From: a virus
Reading direction: 5' to 3' (one strand)
Virus record (IMG/VR): IMGVR_UViG_3300010354_000046
Location: 1-64,000 of that record
DNA: 64,000 nt
The number at the start of each line of letters is the position of its first letter. The first letter of the stretch is position 1. A model generated the notes under the pieces. That model was not told where the DNA came from. It ran no database searches and saw nothing but the letters and a program-made list of their open reading frames with translations. Shown here piece by piece: positions 31,535-48,455 of the stretch. The translations under genes were made by a program, and so were the position numbers.

Positions 31535-31563
31535 AGTATACACTAATTATACTAGGAGCTGAT

Positions 31564-33926: not shown

Positions 33927-34552
33927 GCAACTGTAGACAGTTTGAACGCACGCCAGGGTATCTCATTGACAAGCTATCACCTGCACAACTGCATCCTATT
34001 TGGCGTGAAGTCCGAGACATACAGGCCAGCAATTTTTCTGCGGCCAAGAACAATGACTATCTAACTGGCAACATTCAACATCAATATCAGTTGACCTGTG
34101 GTGAATACGTGGAACATCTGCTGGCGCCCAGGGTCAATGAATATGTACAGACCTTTGGTTATCAGCACAAACTACAGCACTTGGCCGAACCCCGGCCCTT
34201 GAAGATAGCCGATAGAGATCTTTGGGTAAACTTTCAACAACGCTATGAGTTCAATCCACCGCATCACCATTCGGGTATTTTTAGCTTTGTAATTTGGCTA
34301 CAAATACCCTATACCACAGAGGCGGAATTGGCCGCAGGTCCTGGGCACGAGGGGTTTGAGCCGCAGAACGGACAGTTTGTATTTTTGTATGTGGACAGCC
34401 TAGGTCAGATACGGCCTGAACGTTTGGCCGTTGATCGCGCCTGGGAAGGATCAATCTGTGTATTTCCCGCAGAACTTACACACTATGTTAACCCATTTTA
34501 CTCCAGTGATGATTATCGCATAACTGTAGCAGGAAATTTAAAATATGTATAA
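33923..34552 (+). CDS. Putative 2OG-Fe(II) oxygenase
   Basis: WVNFQ...EFNPPHHH, FPAELTHYVNPF, RITVAGN. Confidence 0.8.
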   Translation: MSNCRQFERTPGYLIDKLSPAQLHPIWREVRDIQASNFSAAKNNDYLTGNIQHQYQLTCGEYVEHLLAPRVNEYVQTFGYQHKLQHLAEPRPLKIADRDLWVNFQQRYEFNPPHHHSGIFSFVIWLQIPYTTEAELAAGPGHEGFEPQNGQFVFLYVDSLGQIRPERLAVDRAWEGSICVFPAELTHYVNPFYSSDDYRITVAGNLKYV

Positions 34553-34718
34553 AAAACCCGAAATTTACACCGCCAGAACAGGACCTGAGTTTCTAGTTCT
34601 AGAACACTATGATCTAGAAGGAGACCCTTGGGTTCGTTACCGCAATCAACAGACCAAACAAGAGTACACATGCAGACTAGAAGCATTCTTACAGCGATTT
34701 TCGCCCTTAGCTGCCTAA
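34545..34718 (+). CDS. Small hypothetical protein
   Basis: Manual translation MYKKPEIY...EYTCRLEAFLQRFSPLAA. Confidence 0.55.
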   Translation: MYKKPEIYTARTGPEFLVLEHYDLEGDPWVRYRNQQTKQEYTCRLEAFLQRFSPLAA

Positions 34719-34894
34719 CAGGCTGCGGCACCTACTCTGTGGCCAGTGGTGCAGTTTGGCTTGCAACAGAACGCACAGCCACTGATTGGGTCATGTCGGG
34801 CTTAACTGGTGCAGACTGTCGTACACAGCACCTAGTCCAGGATAAATATGTCTGCGAACAGCCTGTGGTCTATAACCAATCAGGCATTGACTAA
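34670..34894 (+). CDS. Lipoprotein
   Basis: ALSCLTG-C lipobox. Confidence 0.6.
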   Translation: MQTRSILTAIFALSCLTGCGTYSVASGAVWLATERTATDWVMSGLTGADCRTQHLVQDKYVCEQPVVYNQSGID

Positions 34895-34916
34895 ATACAG
34901 TATAGGAGATATCAAT

Positions 34917-35252
34917 ATGACTATGACTTGGGGAATCGTTGCACGTAGTCGCAGCACTGGCATACAGATTCGTAAACCCTTGGCGGAACCCTACACTGAT
35001 CCAGGGTCTGCTCAGGCAGCTGCTGATGCTTGGACCCTAGAGCTCAACACTGAGCAGAAGTTTGGCCTGAACGATTGGCTAGCACGTTACGATGCTGCGT
35101 CAGGCGGACCCACAGAAAACAACATCAATCCCGCAATGGCCCAGCATCCTGCACATGCCCAACCTGATCAGCCTGCCCAAGTGAATCACGCGGCCTATCG
35201 CAGTGAGCAACCGGGAGCCCAGGGCTATACCGGTATGAACGGCAGACTCTAA
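34917..35252 (+). CDS. Hypothetical protein
   Basis: AGGAG RBS, TAAATA at 34892; paralog of the next gene. Confidence 0.65.
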   Translation: MTMTWGIVARSRSTGIQIRKPLAEPYTDPGSAQAAADAWTLELNTEQKFGLNDWLARYDAASGGPTENNINPAMAQHPAHAQPDQPAQVNHAAYRSEQPGAQGYTGMNGRL

Positions 35253-35465
35253 ATGGAATACATAGTTCAAGCTCGCAGTCCCAGCCTGGGCTATACCATC
35301 AGAGAACTACAGTTGGAAAGCCCAGCTATCCAACGCAGAGATTTGGCCCTACAGTTTGCTGAGAGTTTTGCTGCTAGACTGAACCAGCAGCGACACATGA
35401 ATCAATCAGACTGGATCGCTGAAATCGATCAGATAGATCCTCTTTATCACGCACGTACACTCTAA
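35253..35465 (+). CDS. Hypothetical protein
   Basis: ARS.S.G...LN......DW pattern shared with the previous gene. Confidence 0.65.
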   Translation: MEYIVQARSPSLGYTIRELQLESPAIQRRDLALQFAESFAARLNQQRHMNQSDWIAEIDQIDPLYHARTL

Positions 35466-35825
35466 ATGCAGGCGCCAGAGCAACTCCTACGCTATGGCCC
35501 TCAAGAGCCTCAGATACAGGGCACCAGACCACGTTGGCGCATCACAGCAGCACACATCCTAGTACAGGATAGGCGCATGGCCCTACAGATACTAGAGTGG
35601 TTGGCAGAAACAGTTCCCGAAAATCAACACGCCTGCTTTGAAAACCTAGCGGCCATGTACAGTGAATGTGGCAGCTGTCTCACACACGGCGTTATTGGTC
35701 TAGTAGAACCCGGGCAAACAGACCCCGAATTTGAACGAGCACTATGCAGGCTAAGACCCGGAGAATGGTCGAAAGAACCTGTTGAAACCTCCTGGGGATG
35801 GCACGTGGTAGCACGTATCGAATAA
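35466..35825 (+). CDS. ppiC: Parvulin-type peptidyl-prolyl cis-trans isomerase
   Basis: AAHILV, FENLA..YSEC.S, PEFERA, PVETSWGWHVV. Confidence 0.85.
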   Translation: MQAPEQLLRYGPQEPQIQGTRPRWRITAAHILVQDRRMALQILEWLAETVPENQHACFENLAAMYSECGSCLTHGVIGLVEPGQTDPEFERALCRLRPGEWSKEPVETSWGWHVVARIE

Positions 35826-35945
35826 GCCGCGAAGCGGTAGCGCCAGCGCAAAAATTTATAAGAGTCGATACAGCCGCTGCCACAAAGGAGCAGCAGCCGT
35901 ATCTCCAGACGTGGGATTAAATACTGTATACTAGGAGCCGCAACT

Positions 35946-36158
35946 ATGACCCACAAAGAACGTGTAGATTGGATATTGGATATCATGGGTCAAGTAAACC
36001 CCTACAAGCGTCAAGAAGCTAATCGTAAAGGTGAGTTCTACATATACAACATGGGCTATCTCGCCAGCTTTTTAGCTAGTAAAATGGAAGAAGATCCATT
36101 TATAGCACGTGAGTTCTTTCGTCATGCACAAGAGCAAACGAAAGGCAAGTTACGATAA
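35946..36158 (+). CDS. Hypothetical protein
   Basis: 70 aa, AGGAG RBS, TAAATA upstream. Confidence 0.7.
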   Translation: MTHKERVDWILDIMGQVNPYKRQEANRKGEFYIYNMGYLASFLASKMEEDPFIAREFFRHAQEQTKGKLR

Positions 36159-36165
36159 CGACACG

Positions 36166-36567
36166 GAGACCCCGCTGTGACTACTAGCACTATACACTAG
36201 TTAGATACTGATCATACTTGAGTAAAAGCCAAGTAACAGCTGAACTGGGTTCACAATCAATACGCCAAATCCAATAGTGATTGTCCACTACTATATAACG
36301 CCCACAGCTCATAGTAATTGAGTGCTGTTGACAATATAGATAGATCTCATCCATGGACGGATCATCTGATTCCAAAGTAACTACTAGTCTCATAGTATAG
36401 TTATTTACTGCCATGTGCTGCTATTGGAGCGACTAGAAACAACTACTGAGATTGCTTGCAAGCAATCAACTATATGTGTGTGACTTTTATATAGTATACA
36501 GAGACCCCGCTGTGCAGGTCTAGCAGTTTGAGCATATTAGTACGTATATAGGGGAGGCCCCGCTGTG
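36166..36567 (+). repeat. Dispersed GAG(A/G)CCCCGCTGTG repeat, 3 copies
   Basis: Copies at about 36166, 36501 and 36554. Confidence 0.85.
36190..36393 (-). CDS. Hypothetical protein (W-L-L-L-K-Y family variant)
   Basis: Start MRLVVTLES after TAAATA (36402). Confidence 0.55.
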   Translation of the reverse strand: MRLVVTLESDDPSMDEIYLYCQQHSITMSCGRYIVVDNHYWIWRIDCEPSSAVTWLLLKYDQYLTSV

Positions 36568-36615
36568 GGCAACCAGGGTTCGGGCACAATGCGTGGAGAT
36601 TGGAGTAGGATAGCG

Positions 36616-36800
36616 GAATTGTAGAGAATTGTAGAGAAATGTGGGAGAAGTGGGAGTAACCATTTTAACTATGCCCATTTTGACCTCGACTCTGCTATTC
36701 TAGGACCACCGTGCCTGGGCACCGTGCGGCCTGATTGTGGCTCACAACCTAGAAACCGTCACACAATTTCACACTTTTTCACACTTTTCAGCACTTTTGT
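36616..36800. repeat. Two inverted arrays of phased 10-bp repeats
   Basis: GAATTGTAGA-type x4 (36616-36655) facing ACAC(A/T)(A/T)TTTC-type x4 (36761-36800). Confidence 0.75.
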
Positions 36801-36952
36801 CAGATCTGGCCTTGCGTGTAGACATCACTATGCATGGTGCCATGATCTAGTTTGCACTTTTCTACACTCAATACAGTATATACTCTACTACAGTAGTCAC
36901 ACGGTATCCAACTATTCTAACCACTAGATAGGCTCGAACCGTTAAATACTAT

Positions 36953-37153
36953 ATGGACATCAGTAATAATAACATGATTACACTGGCTCACGTTCGTGTA
37001 GCCAACAGTGAAGTCAACATCTATATCAGTTATTGTGTAGCCAGTCAGAATGTTCATATATTCAAATATAATGACTGTGCCTGTGACTATGGTGTATTCG
37101 ATAATCAGGCGGATGCTTGTGAATTTATAGCAGAAAAGTTACCTAAATATTAA
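36953..37153 (+). CDS. Hypothetical protein
   Basis: 66 aa after TAAATA (36943). Confidence 0.55.
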   Translation: MDISNNNMITLAHVRVANSEVNIYISYCVASQNVHIFKYNDCACDYGVFDNQADACEFIAEKLPKY

Positions 37154-37162
37154 GAGGACCCA

Positions 37163-37237
37163 ATGGGGCGTTTAGAATCAGTTGTGGCGGTATTAATCAT
37201 CATTGTATCGGCCATAATCATTATACCATTTATATAG
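37163..37237 (+). CDS. 24-aa hydrophobic peptide
   Basis: MGRLESVVAVLIIIVSAIIIIPFI, GAGG RBS. Confidence 0.4.
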   Translation: MGRLESVVAVLIIIVSAIIIIPFI

Positions 37238-37254
37238 GCGGGGGCGGGGTATTA

Positions 37255-37385
37255 TAATAAAAATACCCAAACCAATATGATTAGTTAGTGCCCGCTAACT
37301 TAAAATAACTCGTGCAGCCTCGCCGTCCATCCCCAGAATGCCTGTTCGAACGCACGGTACCGTTTGTGGGGTATTTCTTATTATG
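37255..37385 (-). ncRNA. Candidate structured non-coding RNA
   Basis: Downstream of a perfect minus-strand promoter; long-range closing stem, internal hairpins, U-run; no convincing ORF. Confidence 0.45.
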
Positions 37386-37390
37386 TGACT

Positions 37391-37419
37391 ATTATACTGT
37401 CTTTTGGGGTCGCTGTCAA
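37391..37419 (-). promoter_or_regulatory. Perfect consensus sigma70 promoter (leftward)
   Basis: TTGACA-17-TATAAT preceded by CTTTCGG as in the island promoters. Confidence 0.85.
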
Positions 37420-37505
37420 CCGAAAGCATAAAGACCCTTCGTTGTGTCGGGGTTCTTGACATTTTGGGCCGTTTACAGTATAATAGCATTTTAAGGGAGC
37501 ACAAT

Positions 37506-37634
37506 ATGTCAGAAGCAAAAGCCGCATTGTATGCAAAGCTCGCAAGTTTGCAAGCACTAACAGACTTAGACGACGACCTCATGCAAGACGCTATTAGTGC
37601 GCTCGCACAAGCCATAGAAGACCATGTAGCGTAA
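37506..37634 (+). CDS. Small hypothetical protein
   Basis: MSEAKAALYAKL..., GGGAGC RBS. Confidence 0.65.
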   Translation: MSEAKAALYAKLASLQALTDLDDDLMQDAISALAQAIEDHVA

Positions 37635-37728
37635 ACGCAACGGTCGAGTGCGGCCAAAGACCCTTCGGTTGACTGGGTCTTTGTTTTGTGCTATAATATA
37701 TGCATAAGTTAAGGAATTGGAGCGAACA

Positions 37729-38055
37729 ATGGCCCGTAACCGCAAGATCCGTAGTGATTGCAATTATATCATCTATGAGGCAGTATCTGCTACGGGTGAA
37801 AACTACATTGGCTTGACACGTAAGTCCGAGTCCACTGTCCGCAAGTCGGTGCTAGAGCGTTGGCGTAAGCATCGGAGCCGTGCTCGTAACGAGAACCGCT
37901 TGTGGGCCCTGTATGTCTACTTGAAGACTGGCGGCTTGGACCTCGCTTGGGAACATCGCGTTCTAGAGATCGTACGTGGCCGCCGGGAAGCCTACGCCCG
38001 TGAACGTGAGATTGTCAAGGCTTTGGCACCATCGCTGAACGATCAGTACCTATAA
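37729..38055 (+). CDS. GIY-YIG-like domain protein
   Basis: YIIY...NYIGLT...RW..H...E...LN. Confidence 0.75.
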   Translation: MARNRKIRSDCNYIIYEAVSATGENYIGLTRKSESTVRKSVLERWRKHRSRARNENRLWALYVYLKTGGLDLAWEHRVLEIVRGRREAYAREREIVKALAPSLNDQYL

Positions 38056-38124
38056 CCTTTCGGTTGACATGGGTACTGATTCCTGCTATAATTAAGGCTA
38101 CAGTAAACGAACAAGGAGCGAAAC

Positions 38125-38850
38125 ATGTTCAAATTGCTTTCCACAGCTAATCCCAAAATCCAAAAGGGCACGGCTCACGGCTATCTGTCGTTCATCCTGC
38201 ATCTTGCACCTGCTGACTTGTCGGGCAAGGAAGTCTGCCCTAAGCGGACCAAGGGTTGCACGGACGCCTGCTTGAATACGGCAGGGCGTGGCGGTATGTT
38301 CAAACGTGGTGAAACTACCAACGTGATCCAAAAGGCACGTATTCGCAAGACCCGTTACTTCTTTGAGAACCGTGACGCTTTCATGGCAGATTTGGTTGAG
38401 GACATCATGCGGGCTGTGAACTTTGCACGCCGCAAGGGTTTGACGCCCGTGTTCCGCTTAAATGGTACATCGGACTTGAGCTGGGAGAAGTACCCAGTTC
38501 CCAACCATGGCAAGAACATCTTTGACGCTTTCAGTACACTACAGTTCTACGACTACACCAAGGTCCTGGGCCGTAAGACAAAGGACATCCCCAACTACCA
38601 CTTGACATTCAGTGCCGCAGAGGACAATCAAGAGGATGTGGTTAACGCTATGATCCAGGGCATGAATGTTGCAATGGTATTTGATCGGCTCCCAGAGACT
38701 TACATGGGCAAGCCCGTGTTCAATGCAGATGAAACGGATCTGCGCTTTTTGGATCCCAAAGGTGTTATACTTGGGCTCAAAGCCAAGGGTCGTGCTAAGA
38801 AGGACACTTCGGGCTTCGTGCGCCGTGTGATTGACATCAAGCCCGTTTGA
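38125..38850 (+). CDS. Gp88-like phage protein (Cys-cluster)
   Basis: VCP.RTKGC...CLNTAGRG, FRLNGTSD, FYDYTK. Confidence 0.7.
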   Translation: MFKLLSTANPKIQKGTAHGYLSFILHLAPADLSGKEVCPKRTKGCTDACLNTAGRGGMFKRGETTNVIQKARIRKTRYFFENRDAFMADLVEDIMRAVNFARRKGLTPVFRLNGTSDLSWEKYPVPNHGKNIFDAFSTLQFYDYTKVLGRKTKDIPNYHLTFSAAEDNQEDVVNAMIQGMNVAMVFDRLPETYMGKPVFNADETDLRFLDPKGVILGLKAKGRAKKDTSGFVRRVIDIKPV

Positions 38851-38883
38851 TGCTATACTATAGGCTACAGTAAAGGAGCGACA

Positions 38884-39165
38884 ATGAAACAAGACTATAC
38901 CATGTATATCTACAAGACAGATCGTCGTAAAAAGAGCGGCGAGCGTCTTGTCAGCACTACCGTTTGGCGCGATCGTGACCCGGACAGCATGCGTCGCGAG
39001 TGCAACGAACTCTATGATCTGTACCCTGCGACCAAAGGCTACCGGTTTGAGTACGTGCCTACAATGAAGACGGTCAAGAACTTGATGACAGGTCAAGACA
39101 TTCAGATCCCGCATGATACACCTAGATCGTGCGACCCTAGTTCAGAACTCTATTGGAGCATGTGA
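38884..39165 (+). CDS. Hypothetical protein
   Basis: Ends TPRSCDPSSELYWSM. Confidence 0.75.
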   Translation: MKQDYTMYIYKTDRRKKSGERLVSTTVWRDRDPDSMRRECNELYDLYPATKGYRFEYVPTMKTVKNLMTGQDIQIPHDTPRSCDPSSELYWSM

Positions 39166-39257
39166 TGTGGGAGTTTATTCGATTTTTACAGGTAACCGCC
39201 ATAGTGGCGCTGGGATGGATCATTGCTCTTGTAGCATATCTCCTTAGCCTGTTGTAA
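39165..39257 (+). CDS. Small membrane peptide
   Basis: MWEFIRFLQVTAIVALGWIIALVAYLLSLL. Confidence 0.45.
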   Translation: MWEFIRFLQVTAIVALGWIIALVAYLLSLL

Positions 39258-39303
39258 TAACCTTTCGGTTGACAGGGTTATTGAAAGATGCTATACTATA
39301 GGC

Positions 39304-39410
39304 TAAGTTAAAGAAGCAAGGCGATCCTCAAATGCAAGGACCCACGCGAAAGCAAAAAGGGTCGTAGCCAAGGGATACGAAGCGAGTTTGGAGACTCGGC
39401 CTAAGCAAAC
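39304..39410 (+). ncRNA. Candidate structured leader RNA/ncRNA
   Basis: About 120-nt leader with nested stems and a GAAA tetraloop, unlike the ~25-nt leaders of the other cassettes. Confidence 0.5.
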
Positions 39411-39426
39411 CAAACTAGGAGCAATC

Positions 39427-39702
39427 ATGGACGTCAAGCAAATCAATCAAGCCATCATGTTCGGTACTTGGACTGATGTAGAGATCTCTAGCATGATCGA
39501 CGCTATCAAGTGGGCTCGCGCCAGTATGGCCAAACGTGTCAAGGCCAGCATGGCACTGGGCGATCCTGTCAAGTTCACTAGCCAAAAGACCGGCATGACC
39601 TATGTGGGCAAGGTAGAGAAGATCGCTGTCAAATACGTGACAGTCAACACGGGTGCAGGTCGCTGGAAGGTGCCCGCTAATATGCTACAGCCTGTGGCAT
39701 AA
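39427..39702 (+). CDS. Hypothetical protein with SH3/KOW-like C-terminus
   Basis: GDPVKF...GKVEKIAVKYVTV...WKVPANML. Confidence 0.7.
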   Translation: MDVKQINQAIMFGTWTDVEISSMIDAIKWARASMAKRVKASMALGDPVKFTSQKTGMTYVGKVEKIAVKYVTVNTGAGRWKVPANMLQPVA

Positions 39703-39786
39703 ACGCAACACAACCAAAGACCCTTTGGTTGACTGGGTCTTTGGTTTGTGCTATAATACGTGTATTGTAAAACAAAGGAGCGAACT

Positions 39787-40020
39787 ATGTTACACAATAC
39801 ACTAGCAAAAGCCCGTTTACAGTTTAATAAAAAACTGGAGATGTATAAACTAATCTGTGCATTTAATGTAACAGAGACAAACAAAAAGGGTCAATTAAAA
39901 TTCCCTGTAGAGAAAAAGTGCAATTATGTCTCGGGACATATAGAACTCTCAGAGCTGCCGCGTGTGCTAGACACAGCAAAAAAGGTCTTGCGTACAAACA
40001 ACATCGTAATCGTAGAATAA
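39787..40020 (+). CDS. Hypothetical protein
   Basis: MLHNTLAKARL..., GGAGCGAA RBS. Confidence 0.7.
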   Translation: MLHNTLAKARLQFNKKLEMYKLICAFNVTETNKKGQLKFPVEKKCNYVSGHIELSELPRVLDTAKKVLRTNNIVIVE

Positions 40021-40030
40021 GGAGCAAACA

Positions 40031-40378
40031 ATGCAAACAGTAAAATTTAACGTTGGGGGCGACGGCCTGTGGTCTAAGGTAAAAGGCTCAGTAGAGATTA
40101 CGGACATGCGTCTGGGCTATGTAGACGAATATAGGGACTTTGGAGAGCTGTGCGTGTACTTTAACACCGAACATTGGGACGTTAACGTTGACGGCTTAAT
40201 TTATACAGACAAGACCTTTAGGCAAGACTTGATACAGTTTTGCAAAGAGCATGGACTTGTGGTAGACCTGTGCTACAGCGAGCAGGGTATGCAGGGAGAC
40301 GACTATGTTAGCTTTGACGTGGGTAGGGACTTTATTGCCAGCTGGGACGCTAAGTTTGGAGTCCCCATTGCTGAATAA
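40031..40378 (+). CDS. Hypothetical protein
   Basis: GLIYTD, YSEQGMQG motifs. Confidence 0.75.
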   Translation: MQTVKFNVGGDGLWSKVKGSVEITDMRLGYVDEYRDFGELCVYFNTEHWDVNVDGLIYTDKTFRQDLIQFCKEHGLVVDLCYSEQGMQGDDYVSFDVGRDFIASWDAKFGVPIAE

Positions 40379-40592
40379 TATTTTACAGTGGGCGGGCACA
40401 GCCTGCCTGCTTACCATGTACGTATTAATGTCGTTCTTCCCGAACCTACATCCTTGGAACATTGTCTGCGGAGTACTAGGCGGAGCATGCTATCTAGCAT
40501 GGACTATCCGTGTTGCAAATAAGCCACAGATGCTGGTCAATGCTGTAGCAATAACCATAGGCGCTGTAGGGTTATATCGGGCATGGGCTTGA
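40368..40592 (+). CDS. Small three-TM membrane protein
   Basis: ILQWAGTACLL...PWNIV... Confidence 0.6.
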   Translation: MLNNILQWAGTACLLTMYVLMSFFPNLHPWNIVCGVLGGACYLAWTIRVANKPQMLVNAVAITIGAVGLYRAWA

Positions 40593-40646
40593 CACAGCAG
40601 CCAAAAGGCGCTATAATTAAGGCATAGTAAACAAAAGGAGCGAGCG

Positions 40647-40997
40647 ATGAGTATTACTATTTCTGGCATTGATTTTGTCAAGCCTGGCGAACTGCTCTAC
40701 TCTAATCCCCGTGCTATTGACATTCTCGTGCGTGAGATTGTGTCTAGCATGGCTGAGAGTAGCATTGACCTGATCTGCGATGCTGGGCCCACTGAGTACC
40801 CAAACAAGGCTAGCATTGAGGACTGCCTCACTGGGTGCAGTGAAATGGGTGTGGACTTCGTTGAGGACATGATCAACGAACTGCGCGACAAATTGGTAGC
40901 ACGCCTGCAAGCCGTAAAGGTCAAGCCCGTTGTCAAGGAAATCCACTTCGATGAGAAGGGTTATTCCGATGTCGTGGTTGACATTGAGCTCGTTTGA
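40647..40997 (+). CDS. Hypothetical protein
   Basis: 116 aa cassette gene. Confidence 0.75.
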   Translation: MSITISGIDFVKPGELLYSNPRAIDILVREIVSSMAESSIDLICDAGPTEYPNKASIEDCLTGCSEMGVDFVEDMINELRDKLVARLQAVKVKPVVKEIHFDEKGYSDVVVDIELV

Positions 40998-41035
40998 GCT
41001 TATAATAGAGTTATTGTTTAACAAAGGAGCGAACT

Positions 41036-41305
41036 ATGTCAAACTACCCTAACATGTCCTACTGCATGTGCAACAACACTCTCATGGCCCTGCGCCAAGT
41101 AATGGACGCCATGCAAGAGGAAGGTCCTATGTTCTTGCGTGAAATCAGCAAGGACGAGTACCGCTCTTACCGGGCCCTGTTTGACGCCTGCGAGAGCTTC
41201 CTCACTCTCAGCGAAGAGCTGGAGACTATTGTAGAGGAAGAAGACTACCACGATGGACAGCCCGACGAAGCTCAGGAGTGGCATGACTTCGACCCCGACT
41301 GCTAA
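41036..41305 (+). CDS. Hypothetical protein
   Basis: NMSYCMC.NT; ends DGQPDEAQEWHDFDPDC. Confidence 0.75.
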   Translation: MSNYPNMSYCMCNNTLMALRQVMDAMQEEGPMFLREISKDEYRSYRALFDACESFLTLSEELETIVEEEDYHDGQPDEAQEWHDFDPDC

Positions 41306-41314
41306 GGAGTAGAC

Positions 41315-41545
41315 ATGATCACAGCAGACACACTCAAAGTCCTTACAGGGTTTGGGCCGCAAGGCCTTACTACATTGATTCGTCGTGCAGGCTACAAGGA
41401 GGACACCTTTACGGGTGCAAAGTTCCTGGGCTTGACTAACGGCGGACAGTTCTGCTACCTCTGCACCTACAAGGGCGAGTTCGAGGACACCTGTAAGGTT
41501 TTCCTTACAGTCAACAAGGACGGAACTGTAAGGGCAGAGTACTAA
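41315..41545 (+). CDS. Hypothetical protein
   Basis: FLGLTNGGQFCY motif. Confidence 0.75.
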   Translation: MITADTLKVLTGFGPQGLTTLIRRAGYKEDTFTGAKFLGLTNGGQFCYLCTYKGEFEDTCKVFLTVNKDGTVRAEY

Positions 41546-41615
41546 TACCCGTTCGGTTGACACGGGTATTGATTGATGTTATACTATAGGCACAGTAACA
41601 AAACAGGAGCGTGAA

Positions 41616-42071
41616 ATGGCAACTCGAAGCACTATTGCATTGGAATTCGCAGACGGTACTGTCCAGCAGGTCTACTGCCACTGGGACGGCTACATTGATC
41701 ACAACGGCAAAATTCTGTTTGAGAACTATTCGAATCCCTTTATCCTGCGCGACTTGATTGACATGGGCGACATTAGCTCGCTGGGTCCCAAAGTCGGCAC
41801 CAAGCATCCGTTTAGCCCGCATGGCGATGGCGACAAGGCTGCATACGATGCGGCACAAGAGGCAGGCTACACTACATTCTACGGACGCGACAGAGGCGAA
41901 GACGGAGTGAGTGCTAAGAAGTTCAAAGACTTCGAGGACTACAAAGCCAATCACCAATATGAGGAATATGAGTATATTCTGCGTACCGACGGGCTGTGGT
42001 ATGTGTCGCAATACGGACGCCCCTACGAGCTGCTGTCAGCAGCTCTGCAACGTCAACTGGAGGAAGCATGA
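41616..42071 (+). CDS. Hypothetical phage protein
   Basis: MATRSTI...YCHWDGY motif. Confidence 0.8.
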   Translation: MATRSTIALEFADGTVQQVYCHWDGYIDHNGKILFENYSNPFILRDLIDMGDISSLGPKVGTKHPFSPHGDGDKAAYDAAQEAGYTTFYGRDRGEDGVSAKKFKDFEDYKANHQYEEYEYILRTDGLWYVSQYGRPYELLSAALQRQLEEA

Positions 42072-42283
42072 AAACAGTCCGAGTAGAGACACTTCTAGTC
42101 CAGGAACTCGAAGTTCCTGATGACTGGGAACGAGAGCACGTCTACGACTTCCTTGGAGAGTATCAGAGCTTCCGTACTGCGTTCCAAGGTGTCAGCAACG
42201 AAGATCAAACAGCTAGGATCGTAGACCTTATGGTCCTAGAGGAAACGGTAACTGAACTAGGTGAGGAGGCCTACGATGAGTAA
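42068..42283 (+). CDS. Hypothetical protein
   Basis: MKTVRVETL, GGAGG RBS. Confidence 0.65.
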   Translation: MKTVRVETLLVQELEVPDDWEREHVYDFLGEYQSFRTAFQGVSNEDQTARIVDLMVLEETVTELGEEAYDE

Positions 42284-42452
42284 AATGAGTGAACTGGCAT
42301 ACGACATTGAGCAACTATACATTGAAGGACTCAATGTAGGGCAGATTGCCCGTGAGCTGAATTGTCCCAAAGAGATTGTTCAAGACTGGCTGGCAGATCA
42401 AAGCCTGCGAGAGTTCGAGGATCTCGACCCGTACAACACCGTCAACAGCTAA
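42276..42452 (+). CDS. Small HTH-like protein
   Basis: GLNVGQIARELNCPKEIVQDWL. Confidence 0.6.
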   Translation: MSKMSELAYDIEQLYIEGLNVGQIARELNCPKEIVQDWLADQSLREFEDLDPYNTVNS

Positions 42453-42614
42453 GTTTCGCGGGCCCTATCGCCTGGGTACTCTCTATAGGACCTGTACCCT
42501 GCAACCTGGGCCTGCCACCGCACTCGACCGTTGTATAGATGCAACAACCCTTCGATTGACTTGGGTATTGAAAGATGCTATACTATAGGCTAAGTTAAAC
42601 AAACAGGAGCAGAC

Positions 42615-42824
42615 ATGGAACTTCAACTTCAGAACCCAATGCAAGTTAAGATTGCAGATCTGCTGTGGGTAGCCCAAACCCAGCGCGAAGTCACAGCAAT
42701 CCTTAATACCTTTGGGCACGATGCTCGTGTAGTCTATGAGCTCATGGTTGCCGCTAGTTTTGACAACATCACTGATACCCAGGACGCTGATAGGGTTATT
42801 AAGCGTTTGGTTGACAAGCAGTGA
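42615..42824 (+). CDS. Hypothetical protein
   Basis: 69 aa cassette gene. Confidence 0.7.
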   Translation: MELQLQNPMQVKIADLLWVAQTQREVTAILNTFGHDARVVYELMVAASFDNITDTQDADRVIKRLVDKQ

Positions 42825-42870
42825 TTTTGGTGCTATACTATAGGCTAAGTTAAACAAACAAGGAGCGCAA

Positions 42871-43128
42871 ATGAAAGAGTTGAAAGAGTTCGTGGATCGC
42901 GAGAACAAGTGGAGTGCTATCTTTGGTAGCCCTGCACTGAGCCTGCAGAGTGCGGCAGATCGCAAGAAGATCGCTAACAAGATTGATTCCTGCCTGAGCC
43001 CAGAGAACTTGACCTGCGATGGAGAGATCAGCCATGCAGAAGCCAATCGCAAGTTCCGCTTCCTCACTAAGGCCGCAGAGCAATTGATGAAGTTGGATCC
43101 CTCTGTTGAAATTCACGAATACTACTAA
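42871..43128 (+). CDS. Hypothetical protein
   Basis: LSPENLTCDGE motif. Confidence 0.75.
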   Translation: MKELKEFVDRENKWSAIFGSPALSLQSAADRKKIANKIDSCLSPENLTCDGEISHAEANRKFRFLTKAAEQLMKLDPSVEIHEYY

Positions 43129-43137
43129 GGAGCGAAC

Positions 43138-43719
43138 ATGCCTAATTGGTGCAACAACACAGTCACCCTGCGTCACAAAGATTCTGCGATGGTCCAGCGA
43201 GCCCAAGAGGCACTGGCCAATGGCAGACTTCTGCAGGAGTTCATTCCTTGCCCACAGGACTTGATTGATACTGTAGCAGGCTTCATGGGAGAAGACAAGC
43301 GTGAAGCACACGAAGCACAGCAGAAGCGCAACATTGAGAATCACGGCTATGCCAATTGGTATGACTGGAATGTGGCCAACTGGGGAACCAAATGGGATGT
43401 AGGCGGCGATGACGGCTTGACACAGCGTCTGGATCCTAACACGCTAGAAGCAAGTTTTGACAGCGCATGGGCTCCTCCAGTTAATGCCTACGAGAAGCTC
43501 TGTGCCCTAGGCTTTGAGATTGAAGCATACTACAATGAGCCCGGCATGGCGTTCTGTGGTAAGTGGAGTGGCGACGAAGACGACTACTCGGATGACTATT
43601 ACGAATACGGTGGTGAAACCTCTGCCACTGTGCGAGAAGCAATCGGCGAAGAGCTAGATGACTTCTGGTGTATTTCAGAGGATATGGCCAACTGGGAAGA
43701 AGAAAATGCAGAAGAATAA
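43138..43719 (+). CDS. YubB/DUF1281-like ferredoxin-fold protein
   Basis: MPNWCNN, WYDWNVANWGTKWD, FDSAWAPP, YNEPGMAFCG. Confidence 0.8.
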   Translation: MPNWCNNTVTLRHKDSAMVQRAQEALANGRLLQEFIPCPQDLIDTVAGFMGEDKREAHEAQQKRNIENHGYANWYDWNVANWGTKWDVGGDDGLTQRLDPNTLEASFDSAWAPPVNAYEKLCALGFEIEAYYNEPGMAFCGKWSGDEDDYSDDYYEYGGETSATVREAIGEELDDFWCISEDMANWEEENAEE

Positions 43720-43852
43720 CAGGACTCTTAACCAAGAGCACGAACGCAGGCAAGAAGGGCGGGTGCGCCCCAAACAGCCGGAATACGATTTCAAACCCTT
43801 GGAAGAAGTTATAGCCATTTGGGTGCGGGAAAGGTTAAATACTCCAACATGA
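43706..43852 (+). CDS. Small hypothetical protein
   Basis: MQKNNRTL... Confidence 0.45.
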   Translation: MQKNNRTLNQEHERRQEGRVRPKQPEYDFKPLEEVIAIWVRERLNTPT

Positions 43853-44148
43853 GTAGACTTCAACTATATGGCAGACCTTGGGTTGTCTTTGACGCCCAGA
43901 ACAAGGACCATCGTCGTTGGTTTGCTGAATTCAACAAGAACCTTTCCTGGAAGAACTGCCCTGTGCGCTTCGTGGTAAACGAGGATCACGGTGACTTGAT
44001 TACACAAATTCAACGCTCTCTAATCCAATTTTATGTGGATAAAGAGTTTGGCACTGATGCAGACCCGCATACCCGTACCAAACCGGGTGTTGTAGGAAAA
44101 CAACAGAAAAAGGTTAACCAAAAGAAGCAAAAACCGGTTGACAATTAA
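43849..44148 (+). CDS. Hypothetical protein
   Basis: MSRLQLYGRPWVVFD, TAAATA at 43836. Confidence 0.7.
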   Translation: MSRLQLYGRPWVVFDAQNKDHRRWFAEFNKNLSWKNCPVRFVVNEDHGDLITQIQRSLIQFYVDKEFGTDADPHTRTKPGVVGKQQKKVNQKKQKPVDN

Positions 44149-44227
44149 CCAATTCGAACTTATAATTTAAACATGCTGAAGAATGGTTCTGAGGCATACT
44201 TTTTAAACACACAGAAAGAGGCACATT

Positions 44228-44581
44228 ATGGCTACTGATAAAACTTTTACCGTTGCAGGCGTTTCCAAGCACAAGGGCGAATACAAAGTTCGCTTCGCCA
44301 ATGATATCATGCGTATCAAGAATCTTGATAAGGCAGGTCACGAAGACATCCGTCTCTGTGAACTGGACAAGGCAATGACCAAGTTCGATGCCATCAAGGC
44401 TATTAGTACTATGGCTGAGTTCTCAGACGCGGCTGCACAGAGCTGCATCAGTGAGTATCTTGAGGACAAAGCTCCCAAAGCCAAAACAGCACCTGCGAAG
44501 GTCCCTGCGAAGGCTACACCTAAGGCCAAGGCTACTGCGCCCAAGGCCAAAGTTACCGAGGACGAAGACGCTCCTTTCTAA
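44228..44581 (+). CDS. Hypothetical protein with K/A/P-rich histone-like tail
   Basis: FTVAGVS...KVRFAND; tail KAPKAKTAPAKVPAKATPKAK. Confidence 0.75.
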   Translation: MATDKTFTVAGVSKHKGEYKVRFANDIMRIKNLDKAGHEDIRLCELDKAMTKFDAIKAISTMAEFSDAAAQSCISEYLEDKAPKAKTAPAKVPAKATPKAKATAPKAKVTEDEDAPF

Positions 44582-44585
44582 ACAC

Positions 44586-44607
44586 AGGGGGTGCAATGCC
44601 CCCTTTC
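44586..44607 (+). terminator. Hairpin terminator
   Basis: AGGGGGT-GCAAT-GCCCCT followed by a short T run. Confidence 0.5.
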
Positions 44608-44627
44608 CAATCTAACATATCTATATC

Positions 44628-44816
44628 ATGACCTGGGAACTCTACGAAGTTTGGGCTGTTGATTCTGACGGCCACGAGGATTTGATCGACACCACAAAAG
44701 ATCTTAAGGCAGCAAGGACCATGGCTAGAGCTAATCTAGACGATGATGTCGTTGAATGCATCATTTATCGTGAAAACGAAGACGGAGATTTGGAGATGGT
44801 AGAACGTGTTAGATAA
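44628..44816 (+). CDS. Small acidic hypothetical protein
   Basis: 62 aa. Confidence 0.65.
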   Translation: MTWELYEVWAVDSDGHEDLIDTTKDLKAARTMARANLDDDVVECIIYRENEDGDLEMVERVR

Positions 44817-44826
44817 GTAAAAAACC

Positions 44827-44905
44827 GGGCCGTTAGCTCATGCTTGGTTAGAGCAGTGGACTCATAATCCATTGGTGCTAGGTTCGACTCCTAGACGGCC
44901 CACCA
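44827..44905 (+). tRNA. tRNA with CAT anticodon (Ile2-type or Met)
   Basis: GGGCCGT/ACGGCCC acceptor, CT-CAT-AA loop, GGTTCGACTCC, CCA end. Confidence 0.92.
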
Positions 44906-44908
44906 AAT

Positions 44909-44985
44909 CTGACTGTAGCTCAACTGGATAGAGCAACAGCCTTCTAAGCTGTAGGTCGGGGGTTCGAGTCCCTCCAGTCAGGCCA
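44909..44985 (+). tRNA. tRNA-Arg(TCT)
   Basis: CTGACTG/CAGTCAG acceptor, CT-TCT-AA loop, GGTTCGAGTCC, CCA end. Confidence 0.93.
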
Positions 44986-45097
44986 TTCTGCCCCGCACTC
45001 GCCTGTTGTATAAACGCAACACCAATACCCATTCGGTTGACTTGGGTATTGAATTGTGCTATACTGTGTTCATAGTAAGCAATTAGGAGCGAACCAA

Positions 45098-45382
45098 ATG
45101 GCTAAACTGTTAATCCAAACCCAAGTTTATGAGAACTATGGCTACCGCTGGAAAGCCAAAGGAGGCGGCGACTATGTGGTTAAGAACTTTAAAGACTTCA
45201 ACCGTGTCACAGAGTTCGTCATGGCTCTCCGCAGCCAAGTCGAGCAGGACAACGAATTCTACCGCGAGCACATCATTGGTTGGGAAGTGGTTGCCGACGA
45301 CTACCTTACAGAGTTCGAGCGCGATCAGCTGGAGTACGAGGGCCAGATCCGCTACCCGGCCAACGAGCTGGTTGTAGAATAA
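45098..45382 (+). CDS. Hypothetical protein
   Basis: TQVYENYG..WKAKGG motif. Confidence 0.75.
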   Translation: MAKLLIQTQVYENYGYRWKAKGGGDYVVKNFKDFNRVTEFVMALRSQVEQDNEFYREHIIGWEVVADDYLTEFERDQLEYEGQIRYPANELVVE

Positions 45383-45389
45383 GGAGTAC

Positions 45390-45494
45390 ATGATGCTTGA
45401 AATTCTTATTGCTGTATTGGTTATTGTCATCATTGGCGTGAATATTGCAACGACTGTATCGACTAGGTTTCGCCGGTGGCTCTATAGCAAATAA
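45390..45494 (+). CDS. Small membrane peptide
   Basis: MMLEILIAVLVIVIIGVNIATTVSTRFRRWLYSK, AAGGAG RBS. Confidence 0.55.
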   Translation: MMLEILIAVLVIVIIGVNIATTVSTRFRRWLYSK

Positions 45495-45563
45495 CCTTTC
45501 GGTTGACAGGGTTACCAAAAGACGCTATAATTAAGGCTACAGTAAACAAACAAGGAGCGCAAA

Positions 45564-45803
45564 ATGGGTATGTGGACTACAGACAACCAAGATACAATGA
45601 GCCTGGTGCTCAAGGCATTCAGCGAAGCCGCTCGTGAAAACTATGGTGGTCATGCTTTTGAAGCAGGCTATCTACAGAGTGTGATAGTTAGCCTTGTGCC
45701 ACTCTTGCCCAAGCGGGCTCAGAAGGTCCTGATAGACGACATGGTTCGTGCCGCTAAGAAGCAAGAGCAAGAAGTCAGCAACAAGCAAAAGGAGACTGTA
45801 TGA
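45564..45803 (+). CDS. Hypothetical protein
   Basis: 79 aa cassette gene. Confidence 0.7.
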   Translation: MGMWTTDNQDTMSLVLKAFSEAARENYGGHAFEAGYLQSVIVSLVPLLPKRAQKVLIDDMVRAAKKQEQEVSNKQKETV

Positions 45804-46024
45804 TTAGAGAGCATATTCAGATTGATACCCGCCACGGTGGGCCTTACGATCGTGGATCGGCAGACAGCTACTACCGTCGTGGTCGTAACCCACACTTCTT
45901 CCGTGGTGACAGCTATCAATCCGAGCGTGTCACCTACAAGGACATGACTCCTGACGAGGTTGTGGCCTACAATGCAGGCTACGATGACAACGAAGAATTT
46001 GGTGACTACAAGGAGTGGTTGTGA
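45800..46024 (+). CDS. Hypothetical protein
   Basis: RHGGPYDRGSADSYY.R...PH motif. Confidence 0.75.
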   Translation: MIREHIQIDTRHGGPYDRGSADSYYRRGRNPHFFRGDSYQSERVTYKDMTPDEVVAYNAGYDDNEEFGDYKEWL

Positions 46025-46194
46025 TTTATCCCGAAGACATGACAGCTGAAGACATCATGGAGTTCGAGTACGAATGGGAACGCTACTGCGATTTGGCAGA
46101 TCCCTACAGCCTAGCCAGCATCAATGCTGAGCTTCAATGTGTTGCAGAAACACAACGCCAAAAGACCCTAGAGGTTGACGGGTCTTTCATTTGA
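46021..46194 (+). CDS. Small acidic hypothetical protein
   Basis: GTG start with AAGGAG RBS; MIYPEDMTAEDIMEFEYEW... Confidence 0.55.
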   Translation: MIYPEDMTAEDIMEFEYEWERYCDLADPYSLASINAELQCVAETQRQKTLEVDGSFI

Positions 46195-46236
46195 GTATAT
46201 AATACATACATATTAACACAACAGGGAGCGACCCAA

Positions 46237-46620
46237 ATGACTAAAGTAAACTATGACAAGTTCGCCAGCTTTGACCTGAACGAAGCCTGTGACCATTTTG
46301 ACAGCATGGACCAGCGGGCCTGGAAGAAGATTGGCAAGTTCATCGTTGCAGACGGTCAAGAGTACGTGGATGTCATGGAGAACCACTTTGACTTTGAAGA
46401 CACCGCAGAAGGCGAATACGCGGCCTTTGACGCAGGTGTCCGTTATGCACTAACTAAGATGAACACGGCCCTGGAAGCCGCAGGTATAGACGTACAGATC
46501 TGCGAAGTGGACCTTGTGGAGAGCATGGGCTTTATTATGGTCCGTTGCGATGATGAGCCCGAGGATTTTGTAAAACGAGCCCTAAAAAAGCCTGTCATGA
46601 TGGTTGACAGCTGGGTCTAA
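46237..46620 (+). CDS. Hypothetical protein
   Basis: 127 aa cassette gene. Confidence 0.75.
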   Translation: MTKVNYDKFASFDLNEACDHFDSMDQRAWKKIGKFIVADGQEYVDVMENHFDFEDTAEGEYAAFDAGVRYALTKMNTALEAAGIDVQICEVDLVESMGFIMVRCDDEPEDFVKRALKKPVMMVDSWV

Positions 46621-46664
46621 AGACTGTATAATAAACACTTCAACAACGCAAACAGGAGCGAAAC

Positions 46665-47012
46665 ATGTCTGCAAACTACACTCAAGAGCAGGTCAACGAA
46701 ATCGTACGTGAAGCACAAGAGGCAGCTCGTAAGGCTGCTCTGGACTTTTTCCAAACCCGTTTGGGCGGTCGTGACCAGTACGCCTGTGGCTTTGCCTGGG
46801 TCAACATCTACCGGGTCAAAGGCAACACCAAACTGGGCAAGATGCTCAAAGCCGCTGGTGTGCGTCAAGACTACACCAAAGCATTTCAAATTTGGAATCC
46901 CAGTGGCATGCCCGTGCAGAACGTAGACACTCTGGAAGCGGGTGCAGAAGCCGCCGCAAATGTCTTTCAAAAGTATGGCTTCGAAGCTTACGCAGGTAGC
47001 CGATTGGATTGA
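46665..47012 (+). CDS. Hypothetical protein
   Basis: ACGFAWV ... SRLD. Confidence 0.75.
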   Translation: MSANYTQEQVNEIVREAQEAARKAALDFFQTRLGGRDQYACGFAWVNIYRVKGNTKLGKMLKAAGVRQDYTKAFQIWNPSGMPVQNVDTLEAGAEAAANVFQKYGFEAYAGSRLD

Positions 47013-47068
47013 CAAAAGGGCCGCAAGGCCTTATAATAGATACTTCAACAAACAGTAAGGAGCGACAA

Positions 47069-47965
47069 ATGGGTAGACCCCTAGGCAGTAAGAACAAGGT
47101 TATGACACTGGCAGCACTCAAGCAGATTGAGTCCGACACCAAGAGCCTTGTACAGGATCCAGTTGAGAAAGACCTCAGCAAGGAAACAGACGAGCAGATT
47201 ATGGAGCGTCTGGGACAACGTTTTGAGATCCTGGAAGACATGACTCGTGCAGTCAAGAAGGGCGATGTACGTGCTATGATTGTATCGGGCCCTCCGGGTG
47301 TGGGCAAGAGCTTTGGCGTGGAGAAAGTACTAAGCAAGCACGATGTGTTCGCCGATGTTGCTGACGACAAGAAGCTGAAGAAGTACGAGATTGTCAAGGG
47401 CGCAATGAGTGCCATTGGCTTGTACTCAAAGCTCTATGAGTTCTCGGACAAGAAGTCAATCCTTGTGTTTGACGACTGTGACAGCGTATTGCTGGACGAC
47501 TTGAGCTTGAACATTCTCAAGGCAGCTCTGGACAGCAGTAAGAAGCGTACCATCCATTGGAACACTGACAGCAGGCTCCTGCGCTCAGAAGGTGTGCCCA
47601 ACAGCTTTGAGTTCAAGGGCGGTGCTATCTTTATTACCAATATCAAGTTCGACAACGTGCGCTCAAAGAAGCTGCGCGATCACTTGGAAGCATTGGAAAG
47701 CCGTTGCCACTACTTGGACTTGACTATTGACACAGAGCGTGAGAAGCTTCTACGCATCCGTCAGGTTGTACGTGATGCAGGCATGCTGGATGACTACGAG
47801 CTTAGTGATACAGCTAAGGCTGAAGTGGTAGACTTCATTGCAGACAATAGTAAGCGTATGCGTGAGCTGAGCTTGCGTATGGTGCTTAAGGTAGCAGACA
47901 TACGCCGTAGCATGCCCAACAACTGGCGTGCTGTAGTAGAGGTTACCTGTATGCGTAACCGTTAA
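47069..47965 (+). CDS. AAA+ ATPase
   Basis: Walker A GPPGVGKS, Walker B LVFDDCD, ITN sensor, ALESR. Confidence 0.9.
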   Translation: MGRPLGSKNKVMTLAALKQIESDTKSLVQDPVEKDLSKETDEQIMERLGQRFEILEDMTRAVKKGDVRAMIVSGPPGVGKSFGVEKVLSKHDVFADVADDKKLKKYEIVKGAMSAIGLYSKLYEFSDKKSILVFDDCDSVLLDDLSLNILKAALDSSKKRTIHWNTDSRLLRSEGVPNSFEFKGGAIFITNIKFDNVRSKKLRDHLEALESRCHYLDLTIDTEREKLLRIRQVVRDAGMLDDYELSDTAKAEVVDFIADNSKRMRELSLRMVLKVADIRRSMPNNWRAVVEVTCMRNR

Positions 47966-48101
47966 GAGTAAGCGGCCCGAGAGCCGCACTGGACCAGCCA
48001 ACGATTCGCTCCCGGTAACTGGTCCCCAAAAGGTCCCATAAGTCCGATTCGCTCCCGGCAAGACCTTTTTCAAATCCCCGACTGGTTCGGGGATTTTTTT
48101 T
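47966..48101 (+). ncRNA. Candidate 3'-UTR sRNA with two anti-RBS loops (AUUCGCUCC)
   Basis: CGATTCGCTCCCGG repeated at 48002 and 48045, each in the apex of a hairpin, followed by an intrinsic terminator. Confidence 0.7.
48072..48101 (+). terminator. Strong intrinsic terminator closing the early island
   Basis: AAATCCCCGA-CTGGT-TCGGGGATTT plus T-run. Confidence 0.9.
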
Positions 48102-48278
48102 GATTGATGTGGAGGGGGGCCGGCATGTATTTTTATAAATTGTTGTTTTTACGCAACAGCGCATGCAAAATTCACCCATAGGTGTAAAATCACCACCCCG
48201 AATCTATAAGTACTTTTATTTTAAATTTTTCGCAGCCACGTTTTTTTACCCTGTAGACCCTCGCCGCATATATACAGT

Positions 48279-48455
48279 ATGAATGAACTGTATACGCAAA
48301 CTGAACAGATCCGTGGACGCTGGTATCGCTATGATCCGGACCGTGATATATGGTATCCCATAGACAATCAGGACTCAGCCGTAAGTGCTTGGGCATGGGT
48401 CATTGTTGTGGCATTTTTAGCGGCTCTAGCTTACTATGCTGAATACTTACGCTAA
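48279..48455 (+). CDS. Small membrane protein
   Basis: Manual translation MNELYTQ...WYRYDPDRDIW...AWVIVVAFLAALAYY. Confidence 0.55.
   Translation: MNELYTQTEQIRGRWYRYDPDRDIWYPIDNQDSAVSAWAWVIVVAFLAALAYYAEYLR

Follow-up and report, generated by a model that had tools for sequence, protein, structure and literature searches.

A private extension of the ribosome-binding site on the early genes of an uncultured giant phage, and a candidate hairpin RNA that may read it

We analysed the first 64 kb (hereafter the window) of a 141.6-kb viral contig, IMG/VR record IMGVR_UViG_3300010354_000046, estimated by CheckV to be about 38% complete; since a contig of this length represents so small a part of its genome, the virus, which is uncultured and from freshwater, is a giant phage. 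The plus strand of the window carries an island of early genes whose Shine-Dalgarno (SD) sequences are prolonged into AGGAGCGAA, a private extension of the ribosome-binding site that we call the tag, and the last of these genes, coding for an AAA-like ATPase, is followed by two hairpins that expose the complement of the tag (the anti-tag) in their loops. The interpretation that we favour, and consider fairly probable, is that one phage hairpin RNA reads the private tag and controls the translation of the whole early gene class.

Occurrence of the tag

A first-pass annotation, made from the letters of the window alone, had reported fourteen GGAGCG and four GGAGCA hexamers shortly before start codons, and inspection of the eighteen sites bore this out: all lie on the plus strand, 3–6 nucleotides 5′ of an ATG that opens an open reading frame (ORF), at 37719, 38115, 38875, 39777, 40637, 41026, 41606, 42862, 43129, 45086, 45554, 46225, 46655 and 47059 (GGAGCG) and at 37496, 39418, 40021 and 42606 (GGAGCA). 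Seven of the fourteen GGAGCG sites (37719, 38115, 39777, 41026, 43129, 45086 and 46655) read GGAGCGAA, as had been stated. The restriction of the motif to the island, also claimed at that stage, extends to the whole 141.6-kb record, where GGAGC(G/A) stands at a plausible ribosome site only between 37496 and 47064; GGAGCG before genes outside the island was looked for across the record and not found. The window holds 22 copies of GGAGCG against 12.5 ± 3.6 expected, and the excess is wholly due to the island cluster. Genes outside the island use other sites, in agreement with the annotation: among the 39 with a GGAG core, GGAGAA was found 16 times, GGAGAT 10 times, GGAGTT four times and GGAGG once, and it is GGAGA(A/T) that the late genes of the same phage use.

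Within the island the tag is a feature of promoter-proximal cistrons. Fifteen of the 16 tagged or tag-like first cistrons stand directly behind a consensus promoter, the exception being the tag at 39418, which is separated from its promoter by about 130 nucleotides of leader. Operon-internal island genes mostly have different sites, namely GGAGTA (41315 and 45390), GGAGGA (42068), GAGGAGG (42276), GGAGAC (45800) and GGAGTG (46021), although two of them, at 40021 and 43129, are tagged all the same.

Selection on the extension in related phages

For comparison, 158 related loci were retrieved through the last early gene (AAA-like ATPase, phrog_1250). They supplied 442 distinct promoter-linked contexts, in which A stands before GGAG in 94% of the cases and the four positions after it are C (93%), G (78%), A (71%) and A (71%), while the adjacent leader positions hold only 0.1–0.7 bits. 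C at position 5 is found in 93% of the promoter-proximal GGAG sites versus 34% of the promoter-less ones. The spacing between tag and ATG is SD-like (5–8 nucleotides), whereas the distance to the -10 box is variable (13–24 nucleotides). Upstream of the orthologous ATPase gene, in a comparison from which the most distant clade was left out, GGAGCG is kept in 46 of 49 distinct sequences although the leader and the promoter spacer have almost fully diverged. That C5 and G6 have been kept while leaders and spacers diverged shows purifying selection on the extension; the two bases unable to pair with CCUCC are under such selection, and this specifically where the ribosome site is the first one of an early transcript.

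Hairpins complementary to the tag

The ATPase gene (47069–47965) is followed on the plus strand by two hairpins, together spanning 47991–48069, and then by an intrinsic terminator. The first hairpin (47991–48025) has the stem GGACCAG/CTGGTCC with inner CG/CG pairs and the loop AUUCGCUCC at 48004–48012; the second (48028–48069) has the stem AAAAGGTC/GACCTTTT, closing pairs CCG/CGG and the same loop AUUCGCUCC at 48047–48055. The terminator (48072–48101), a 10-bp stem followed by a T run, ends both the early block and the anti-tag RNA, and is the only strong plus-strand terminator of the island. The loop AUUCGCUCC is the exact complement of GGAGCGAAU, that is, of GGAGCGAA(U), and can pair contiguously with the tags over 6–9 bp that include the SD core. 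On the plus strand of the record UCGCUCC occurs in three places only, two of which are these loops (at 48006 and 48049).

No promoter was found between the ATPase gene and the hairpins; hence the RNA would form the 3′ end of what is transcribed from the promoter at 47009, perhaps after processing. A scan of 47800–48300 against Rfam gave no family at threshold, the best scores being those of RF02278 (20.6 bits against a gathering threshold of 50) and RF02837 (15.5 against 49.5). Short contigs from RNA libraries of at least three studies, identical to the island, matched 37000–48400, but such contigs cannot show transcription, strand or ends.

Two side observations concern the anti-tag word. Its context in the loops, GAUUCGCUCC (48003–48012 and 48046–48055), shares seven of ten positions with the common 16S 3′ tail GAUCACCUCC, so that the anti-tag looks like a mutated anti-SD; the resemblance is weaker in a sister clade described below (clade B). 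Also, CGCTCCTTT, complementary to the tag form AAAGGAGCG, is found at the 3′ end of the ORF 44228–44581, just 5′ of its stop codon (44569–44606), and is followed by a G+C hairpin (CAGGGGGTGCAATGCCCCCT) and by tRNA genes. This site could be a third, weaker anti-tag or a chance occurrence.

Predicted pairing with the loop and with 16S rRNA

The ordinary 16S rRNA 3′ end is of the ...CACCUCCUU type, and our comparison used this common tail as a stand-in for that of the host. With the loop, the promoter-proximal island starts form predicted duplexes of −12.4 kcal/mol on average (−9.6 to −15.6 for the tagged ones), whereas with the canonical 16S tail the mean of the same starts is −7.8 kcal/mol. For the operon-internal genes the loop gives a predicted −8.6 kcal/mol and the 16S tail −9.6, and for the non-island genes the values are −6.1 and −6.9, respectively; the untagged ATG at 44228 reaches only −3.1 kcal/mol with the loop. 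It had been argued in the first-pass annotation that CG(AA) does not improve pairing to the canonical anti-SD, and the energies agree, since the tagged starts, at −7.8 kcal/mol, are no better served by the 16S tail than ordinary sites are.

Two near-tags were noted just outside the island: one, GGAGCT (31506–31566), stands behind a consensus promoter at 31506 and precedes the ATG at 31564, and the other, GGAGCC (35925–35948), follows TATACT and precedes the ATG at 35946. Both have C at position 5 and would pair with the loop over 5 bp.

Conservation of the hairpins and joint switch of tag and loop

Nearly all tag-bearing relatives possess one to three anti-tag hairpins right after the ATPase gene, so the position is conserved. 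Some carry extra ones immediately 3′ of the point where another early gene stops (CUAG-UUCGCUCC-UAG is an example); such copies are at L001:5985, L010:4329–4364, L060:5659–5694 and L064:2356 and 8483 (locus:position), and the number of anti-tag modules per phage goes from one to at least four. The stems vary between phages, but of 96 distinct units 85, 82 and 76, respectively, retain the three closing pairs, in several types (CCG/CGG, GUG/CAC, UUG/CAA among others). The loop is displayed: in the minimum-energy fold at least five of the seven nucleotides of the word are unpaired in 81 out of 103 cases, versus 75 out of 515 when the flanks are shuffled.

The sister clade (clade B: L065/L081–L102, L115 and L119) has the same promoters and a different private tag, (A)GAGGGCA(A), and the hairpins after its ATPase gene display UGCCCUC (25 out of 31 cases, versus 38 out of 155 with shuffled flanks). 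Co-variation was counted over 125 loci with distinct downstream regions, the loop being sought within 260 nucleotides after the ATPase gene. The 44 loci with a GGAGCG tag have UCGCUCC in 40 cases, UGCCCUC in none and neither word in four, while in all 19 loci with a (G)AGGGCA tag the word is UGCCCUC and never UCGCUCC. In more distant relatives private tag and hairpins are both missing. An intermediate situation is found in L145/L148, whose tags are mostly AAGGAGCAC and which contain, inside the early block, one UUGCUCC and one UCGCUCC loop, i.e. a case of partial G-to-A/C-to-U co-variation. From the sequences, we regard the co-variation as strong in kind. The initial proposal that the extension implies a reader other than the anti-SD, either RNA or protein, is thus supported from three sides: the energetics with 16S rRNA, the purifying selection on the extension, and the complementary loops that switch together with the tag.

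Anatomy of the cassettes

Sixteen of the 18 tags close a repeated cassette made of a hairpin, a consensus sigma70 promoter, an A/C-rich leader and the tag. Seventeen plus-strand promoters were found between 37456 and 47037, with 10–12 matches out of 12 to TTGACA-17-TATAAT and, in many cases, a TG extension. The -35 box is flanked by the two arms of an inverted repeat rich in G+C, and after the -10 box come a leader of 11–22 nucleotides, A/C-rich and G-poor, then the tag, 3–6 nucleotides and the ATG. In most cassettes between 37640 and 47040 (e.g. 37648–37687, 39708–39747 and 45016–45055) TTGAC is situated in the loop or the 3′ arm of the inverted repeat, whose arms vary by cassette (AAAGACCC...GGGTCTTT or AATACCC...GGGTATT, for example). 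By analogy with PeSL cassettes, which are discussed below, the hairpin around the -35 box may be a terminator or attenuator fused to the promoter. The leaders also show an (AAN)-like periodicity at −8 to −1, no more than a hint at a dependence on Hfq.

All cassettes are on the plus strand. Cassette 1 (37456–37508) joins a TTGACA-17-TATAAT promoter by a short leader to GGAGCA at 37496–37501 and ATG 37506, and in cassette 2 (37669–37731), where the -35 box is inside the hairpin, the leader ends in GGAGCGAA at 37719, before ATG 37729. The same succession of promoter, leader, tag and ATG is found in cassettes 3 (38064–38127; GGAGCGAA at 38115, ATG 38125, gene of the GP88 family), 4 (38831–38886; GGAGCGAC at 38875, ATG 38884), 5 (39269–39429; GGAGCA at 39418, ATG 39427, the one with the unusually long leader of about 130 nucleotides), 6 (39729–39789; GGAGCGAA at 39777, ATG 39787), 7 (40589–40649; GGAGCGAG at 40637, ATG 40647), 8 (40978–41038; GGAGCGAA at 41026, ATG 41036), 9 (41557–41618; GGAGCGTG at 41606, ATG 41616), 10 (42556–42617; GGAGCA at 42606, ATG 42615) and 11 (42811–42873; GGAGCGCA at 42862, ATG 42871). 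After the tRNA genes, the series goes on with cassettes 12 (45037–45100; GGAGCGAA at 45086, ATG 45098), 13 (45503–45566; GGAGCGCA at 45554, ATG 45564), 14 (46175–46239; GGGAGCGAC at 46225, ATG 46237, with the strongest predicted loop duplex, −15.6 kcal/mol), 15 (46604–46667; GGAGCGAA at 46655, ATG 46665) and 16 (47009–47071; GGAGCGAC at 47059, before ATG 47069 of the last early gene). The two operon-internal tags are GGAGCA at 40021 (40021–40033, ATG 40031), which has no promoter of its own, and GGAGCGAA at 43129 (43129–43140, ATG 43138). The sole untagged promoter of the island (44138–44230) serves a first gene with the site GAGGCA, the one starting at ATG 44228.

Some cassettes form sub-families with near-identical leaders (39269/42556/42811 and 38064/45503), and a strict search of the record for the whole cassette pattern gave no match because spacer lengths vary. 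RNA-library contigs of related phages join different cassettes with other letters between them (joints 39712/42829, 42857/41616 and 46186/42853), and these sequences suggest that gene content between cassettes differs among relatives, with module shuffling at the cassettes.

Genome setting

The minus strand carries virion genes at 1–23 kb and helicase and primase genes at 49–64 kb. The replicative helicase shares about 50% identity with its counterparts in Pseudomonas phage PA5oct and Agrobacterium phage Atu_ph07, jumbo-type phages that are by this protein the nearest cultured relatives, and near-identical DNA is present in freshwater and riverine metagenomes. The early block, a plus-strand block, has a G+C content of 0.44–0.50 (34000–48000) versus about 0.40 in the rest of the phage; its genes may be tuned to the composition of the host or to its tRNA pool, ahead of the action of the phage tRNAs, or may differ in origin. 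The products are small and mostly without known function. The second island protein (37729–38055, 108 amino acids) has a weak, sub-threshold match to GIY-YIG nucleases (21.5 bits, cut-off 22.6).

A near-identity search against cultured phages matched, within the island, only two tRNA genes, tRNA-Met(CAT) and tRNA-Arg(TCT) (44827–44985), which are 82–85% identical to tRNAs of T4-like Acinetobacter and Kosakonia phages; ARAGORN detected these two tRNAs and no others. The same genes have the highest depth in the RNA libraries, probably stemming from related tRNAs. Back to back with cassette 1, a perfect TTGACA-17-TATAAT promoter on the minus strand (37391–37419) may drive the minus-strand ORFs at 36190–36678.

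A possible mode of action

The tag would keep the SD core, (A)GGAG, for the host ribosomes and add CGAA, which 16S rRNA cannot pair with, as a private address. Its cognate reader would be a phage RNA that originates in the 3′ untranslated end of the last early gene (47966–48101). Since the pairing covers the SD sequence, the simplest outcome would be competition with the 30S subunit, i.e. occlusion of the ribosome site, possibly with decay of the mRNA. As the stable hairpin RNA accumulated, the early proteins would be repressed as a class and in a graded manner, the strength being set by the length of the match. We infer that the RNA is made, that it pairs with the tag in vivo and that the outcome is repression; judged from the sequences, the function is probably a translational shut-off. 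A shut-off tuned by graded match length had already been put forward in the first-pass annotation, and the predicted duplexes make it plausible.

Several points weigh against this interpretation. The RNA-library material consists of assembled contigs only, which cannot prove transcription, ends, abundance or processing of the candidate RNA. Having no promoter of its own, the anti-tag RNA would be produced alongside its targets, with a single promoter versus their sixteen, so that shut-off requires an RNA far more stable than the mRNAs or a catalytic action through decay. Instead of repression, the effect might be protection or that of a sponge. Lastly, the co-variation amounts to essentially one clade-level switch plus the partial L145/L148 case, that is, to few independent events.

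The hairpin RNA may also act as a sponge or a timer, or serve to exclude related superinfecting phages. A more elaborate version, built on analogy and in our opinion rather unlikely, is that tag and loop constitute an orthogonal channel for both RNA immunity and timing, through which the accumulated anti-tag RNA of a resident phage shuts off its own early class and at once silences the early genes of superinfecting relatives with the same tag, in the manner of P1/P7 c4 heteroimmunity. If so, the clade-wide switch from GGAGCGA to GAGGGCA would be an escape from cross-silencing, and the same logic might explain the SAS tags of mycobacteriophages (see below).

Other explanations

The tag could be a mere passenger of a mobile, PeSL-like promoter-leader-SD cassette that duplicates and recombines, GGAGCG being the site of the ancestral copy, preserved as any functional SD sequence would be, and the loops unrelated terminator or attenuator hairpins. 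The tight linkage between tag and cassette (93% versus 34%), the sub-families with near-identical leaders (39269/42556/42811 and 38064/45503), the contigs of relatives in which different cassettes are joined, which fits module shuffling, and the precedent of PeSL cassettes, which end in an SD sequence and recombine (PMC2839356), all speak for it. However, leaders and spacers are near-random while C5 is kept at 93% and G6 at 78%, although A or T would suit an SD sequence equally and the other genes of the phage use GGAGA. The exact complements displayed in loops and their joint switch with the tag to GAGGGCA/UGCCCUC would also be left unexplained, and we find this origin of the tag unlikely.

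A second possibility is that a protein reads the tag on the mRNA, for instance a phage RegB-like endoribonuclease or a RegA-like repressor, the hairpin loops having another role. There is a precedent in T4, where a class-specific extension of early SD sequences is read by a phage factor plus S1 (PMC1702504), and a gene for such a reader could lie elsewhere, the record being only about 38% of the genome. Yet REGB_T4 (PF10715) has no match at E ≤ 1 in this 141.6-kb, about 38% complete record, C5 is counter-selected in RegB/S1 sites (PMC1702504) while it stands at 93% here, and complementary RNA loops co-varying with the tag would not be expected of a protein reader. A protein in this role is quite unlikely in our judgement.

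Alternatively, GGAGCGAA/TTCGCTCC could be the double-stranded site of a phage DNA-binding protein, a repressor of early transcription or a roadblock, inverted at the end of the block. As DNA, tag and anti-tag are identical, so all copies in a clade should switch together in this case too, the sites co-evolving with the protein and thereby mimicking a co-variation of tag and loop. But the word is not palindromic, and its spacing is locked to the ATG as that of an SD sequence is (5–8 nucleotides), the distance to the -10 box varying from 13 to 24 nucleotides. Moreover, the inverted copies sit in hairpins with co-varying stems that leave the word unpaired in 79–81% of the cases versus 15–25% in shuffles, a property of the RNA, which makes a DNA site very unlikely.

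Finally, a preference of the host ribosome for the extension, through an unusual 16S 3′ tail or a contact with S1 or bS21, would turn the tag into an optimal early site, and the A/C-rich unstructured leaders do resemble translational enhancers; this we hold to be highly improbable, for the non-island genes of the same phage use GGAGA(A/T), the sister clade has a different private extension on the canonical core, the CCUCC anti-SD is nearly universal, and the phage-encoded complements would be left without explanation. Three further candidates were rejected: a CsrA/RsmA site (the bases after GGA depart from the consensus, and the upstream ACA occurs in varying register), a sigma70-dependent or elemental pause signal (−10 lacks a G, and the promoter stands at varying distances), and a Chi site or a mimic of a tRNA T-arm (no match).

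Comparison with known systems

The closest published analogue of the tag is the SAS of cluster K mycobacteriophages, a 13-bp word, GGGATAGGAGCCC, found 3–7 bp before gene starts in the non-structural half of the genome, for which the authors left open whether the reader is RNA or protein (PMC3203893). Both words consist of an AGGAG core with conserved flanks that do not pair with 16S rRNA, and both stand 3–7 bp before starts, in one orientation, ahead of unrelated genes and in the non-structural half of the genome. In Anaya, Adephagia, Angelica and CrimD of cluster K, there is also a single inverted SAS copy apart from gene starts (PMC3203893). The differences lie in the word itself (AGGAGCGAA versus GGGATAGGAGCCC), in the phage lineage and the host phylum, in the coupling of our tag to sigma70-type promoter cassettes, and in the presence of a candidate hairpin RNA with co-variation, whereas SAS has no identified reader.

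On the side of the RNA, the hairpins recall the Cuckoo/CcsR small RNAs of Alphaproteobacteria (RSs0680, alpha-r14), in which two to four adjacent hairpins with highly variable stems present the same anti-SD-like loop word (PMC4615179). The Cuckoo loops, however, carry the generic anti-SD CCUCCUCCC, while AUUCGCUCC is a private word that answers to the tag of the phage itself, within a phage-encoded element that has neither sequence homology to these RNAs nor an Rfam match at threshold. Another relevant case is the c4 antisense RNA of phages P1 and P7, whose loops pair around a ribosome site and whose differences in specificity underlie heteroimmunity (Citron & Schuster 1990, as cited in PMC8198154; PMC12197685). 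There too, the loops of a phage RNA are directed against ribosome sites of the phage's own mRNA, and c4 heteroimmunity parallels the switch of tag and loop between our clades; but c4 acts on one operon (icd/ant) of a temperate phage, whereas here 16–18 separate early starts share the target word in a giant phage of lytic type.

With T4 RegB/S1, in which a protein nuclease plus S1 inactivates early mRNAs as a class at the consensus GGAGRAYARAA on early-gene SD sequences, C being rare at positions 5–6 (PMC1702504), the tag has in common an extension 3′ of GGAG that is peculiar to early genes and for which 16S pairing does not account. The T4 consensus is A-rich with C5 counter-selected, while 93% of our 442 sites have C5. 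The layout of the cassettes, finally, is that of the PeSL cassettes of T4-like (Tevenvirinae-type) phages, which combine a sigma70 promoter, a stem-loop within or overlapping it, an SD sequence and a start codon and are found in a plastic region next to small genes without known function (PMC2839356, PMC4122927): here also, promoter, stem-loop, SD sequence and ATG are repeated as a unit before such small genes, likewise in a plastic region. A private SD extension and a complementary RNA have not been reported for PeSLs.

In our searches of the literature we found no account of lytic giant phages that have a private SD tag and a phage RNA cognate to it. That phages extend ribosome sites in a class-specific way has been known since 2011 (SAS), with no reader identified, and T4 RegB/S1, the one case to have been worked out, relies on a protein; here, there is a concrete candidate RNA partner for the tag, and the two co-vary in hundreds of giant-phage contigs from the environment. 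Should the pairing be real, it would let a virus address an entire temporal class of genes post-transcriptionally by means of a private code that is absent from host mRNAs, which is of relevance to the developmental timing of phages, to the competition between related phages and to the design of orthogonal translation control. By its sequence, the hairpin element stands outside the SAS, Cuckoo/CcsR and c4 families, and it has three of the properties expected of trans-acting small RNAs directed against ribosome-binding sites: contiguous complementarity between loop and target, single-stranded display of the loop word, and compensatory change across lineages, in essence one switch.

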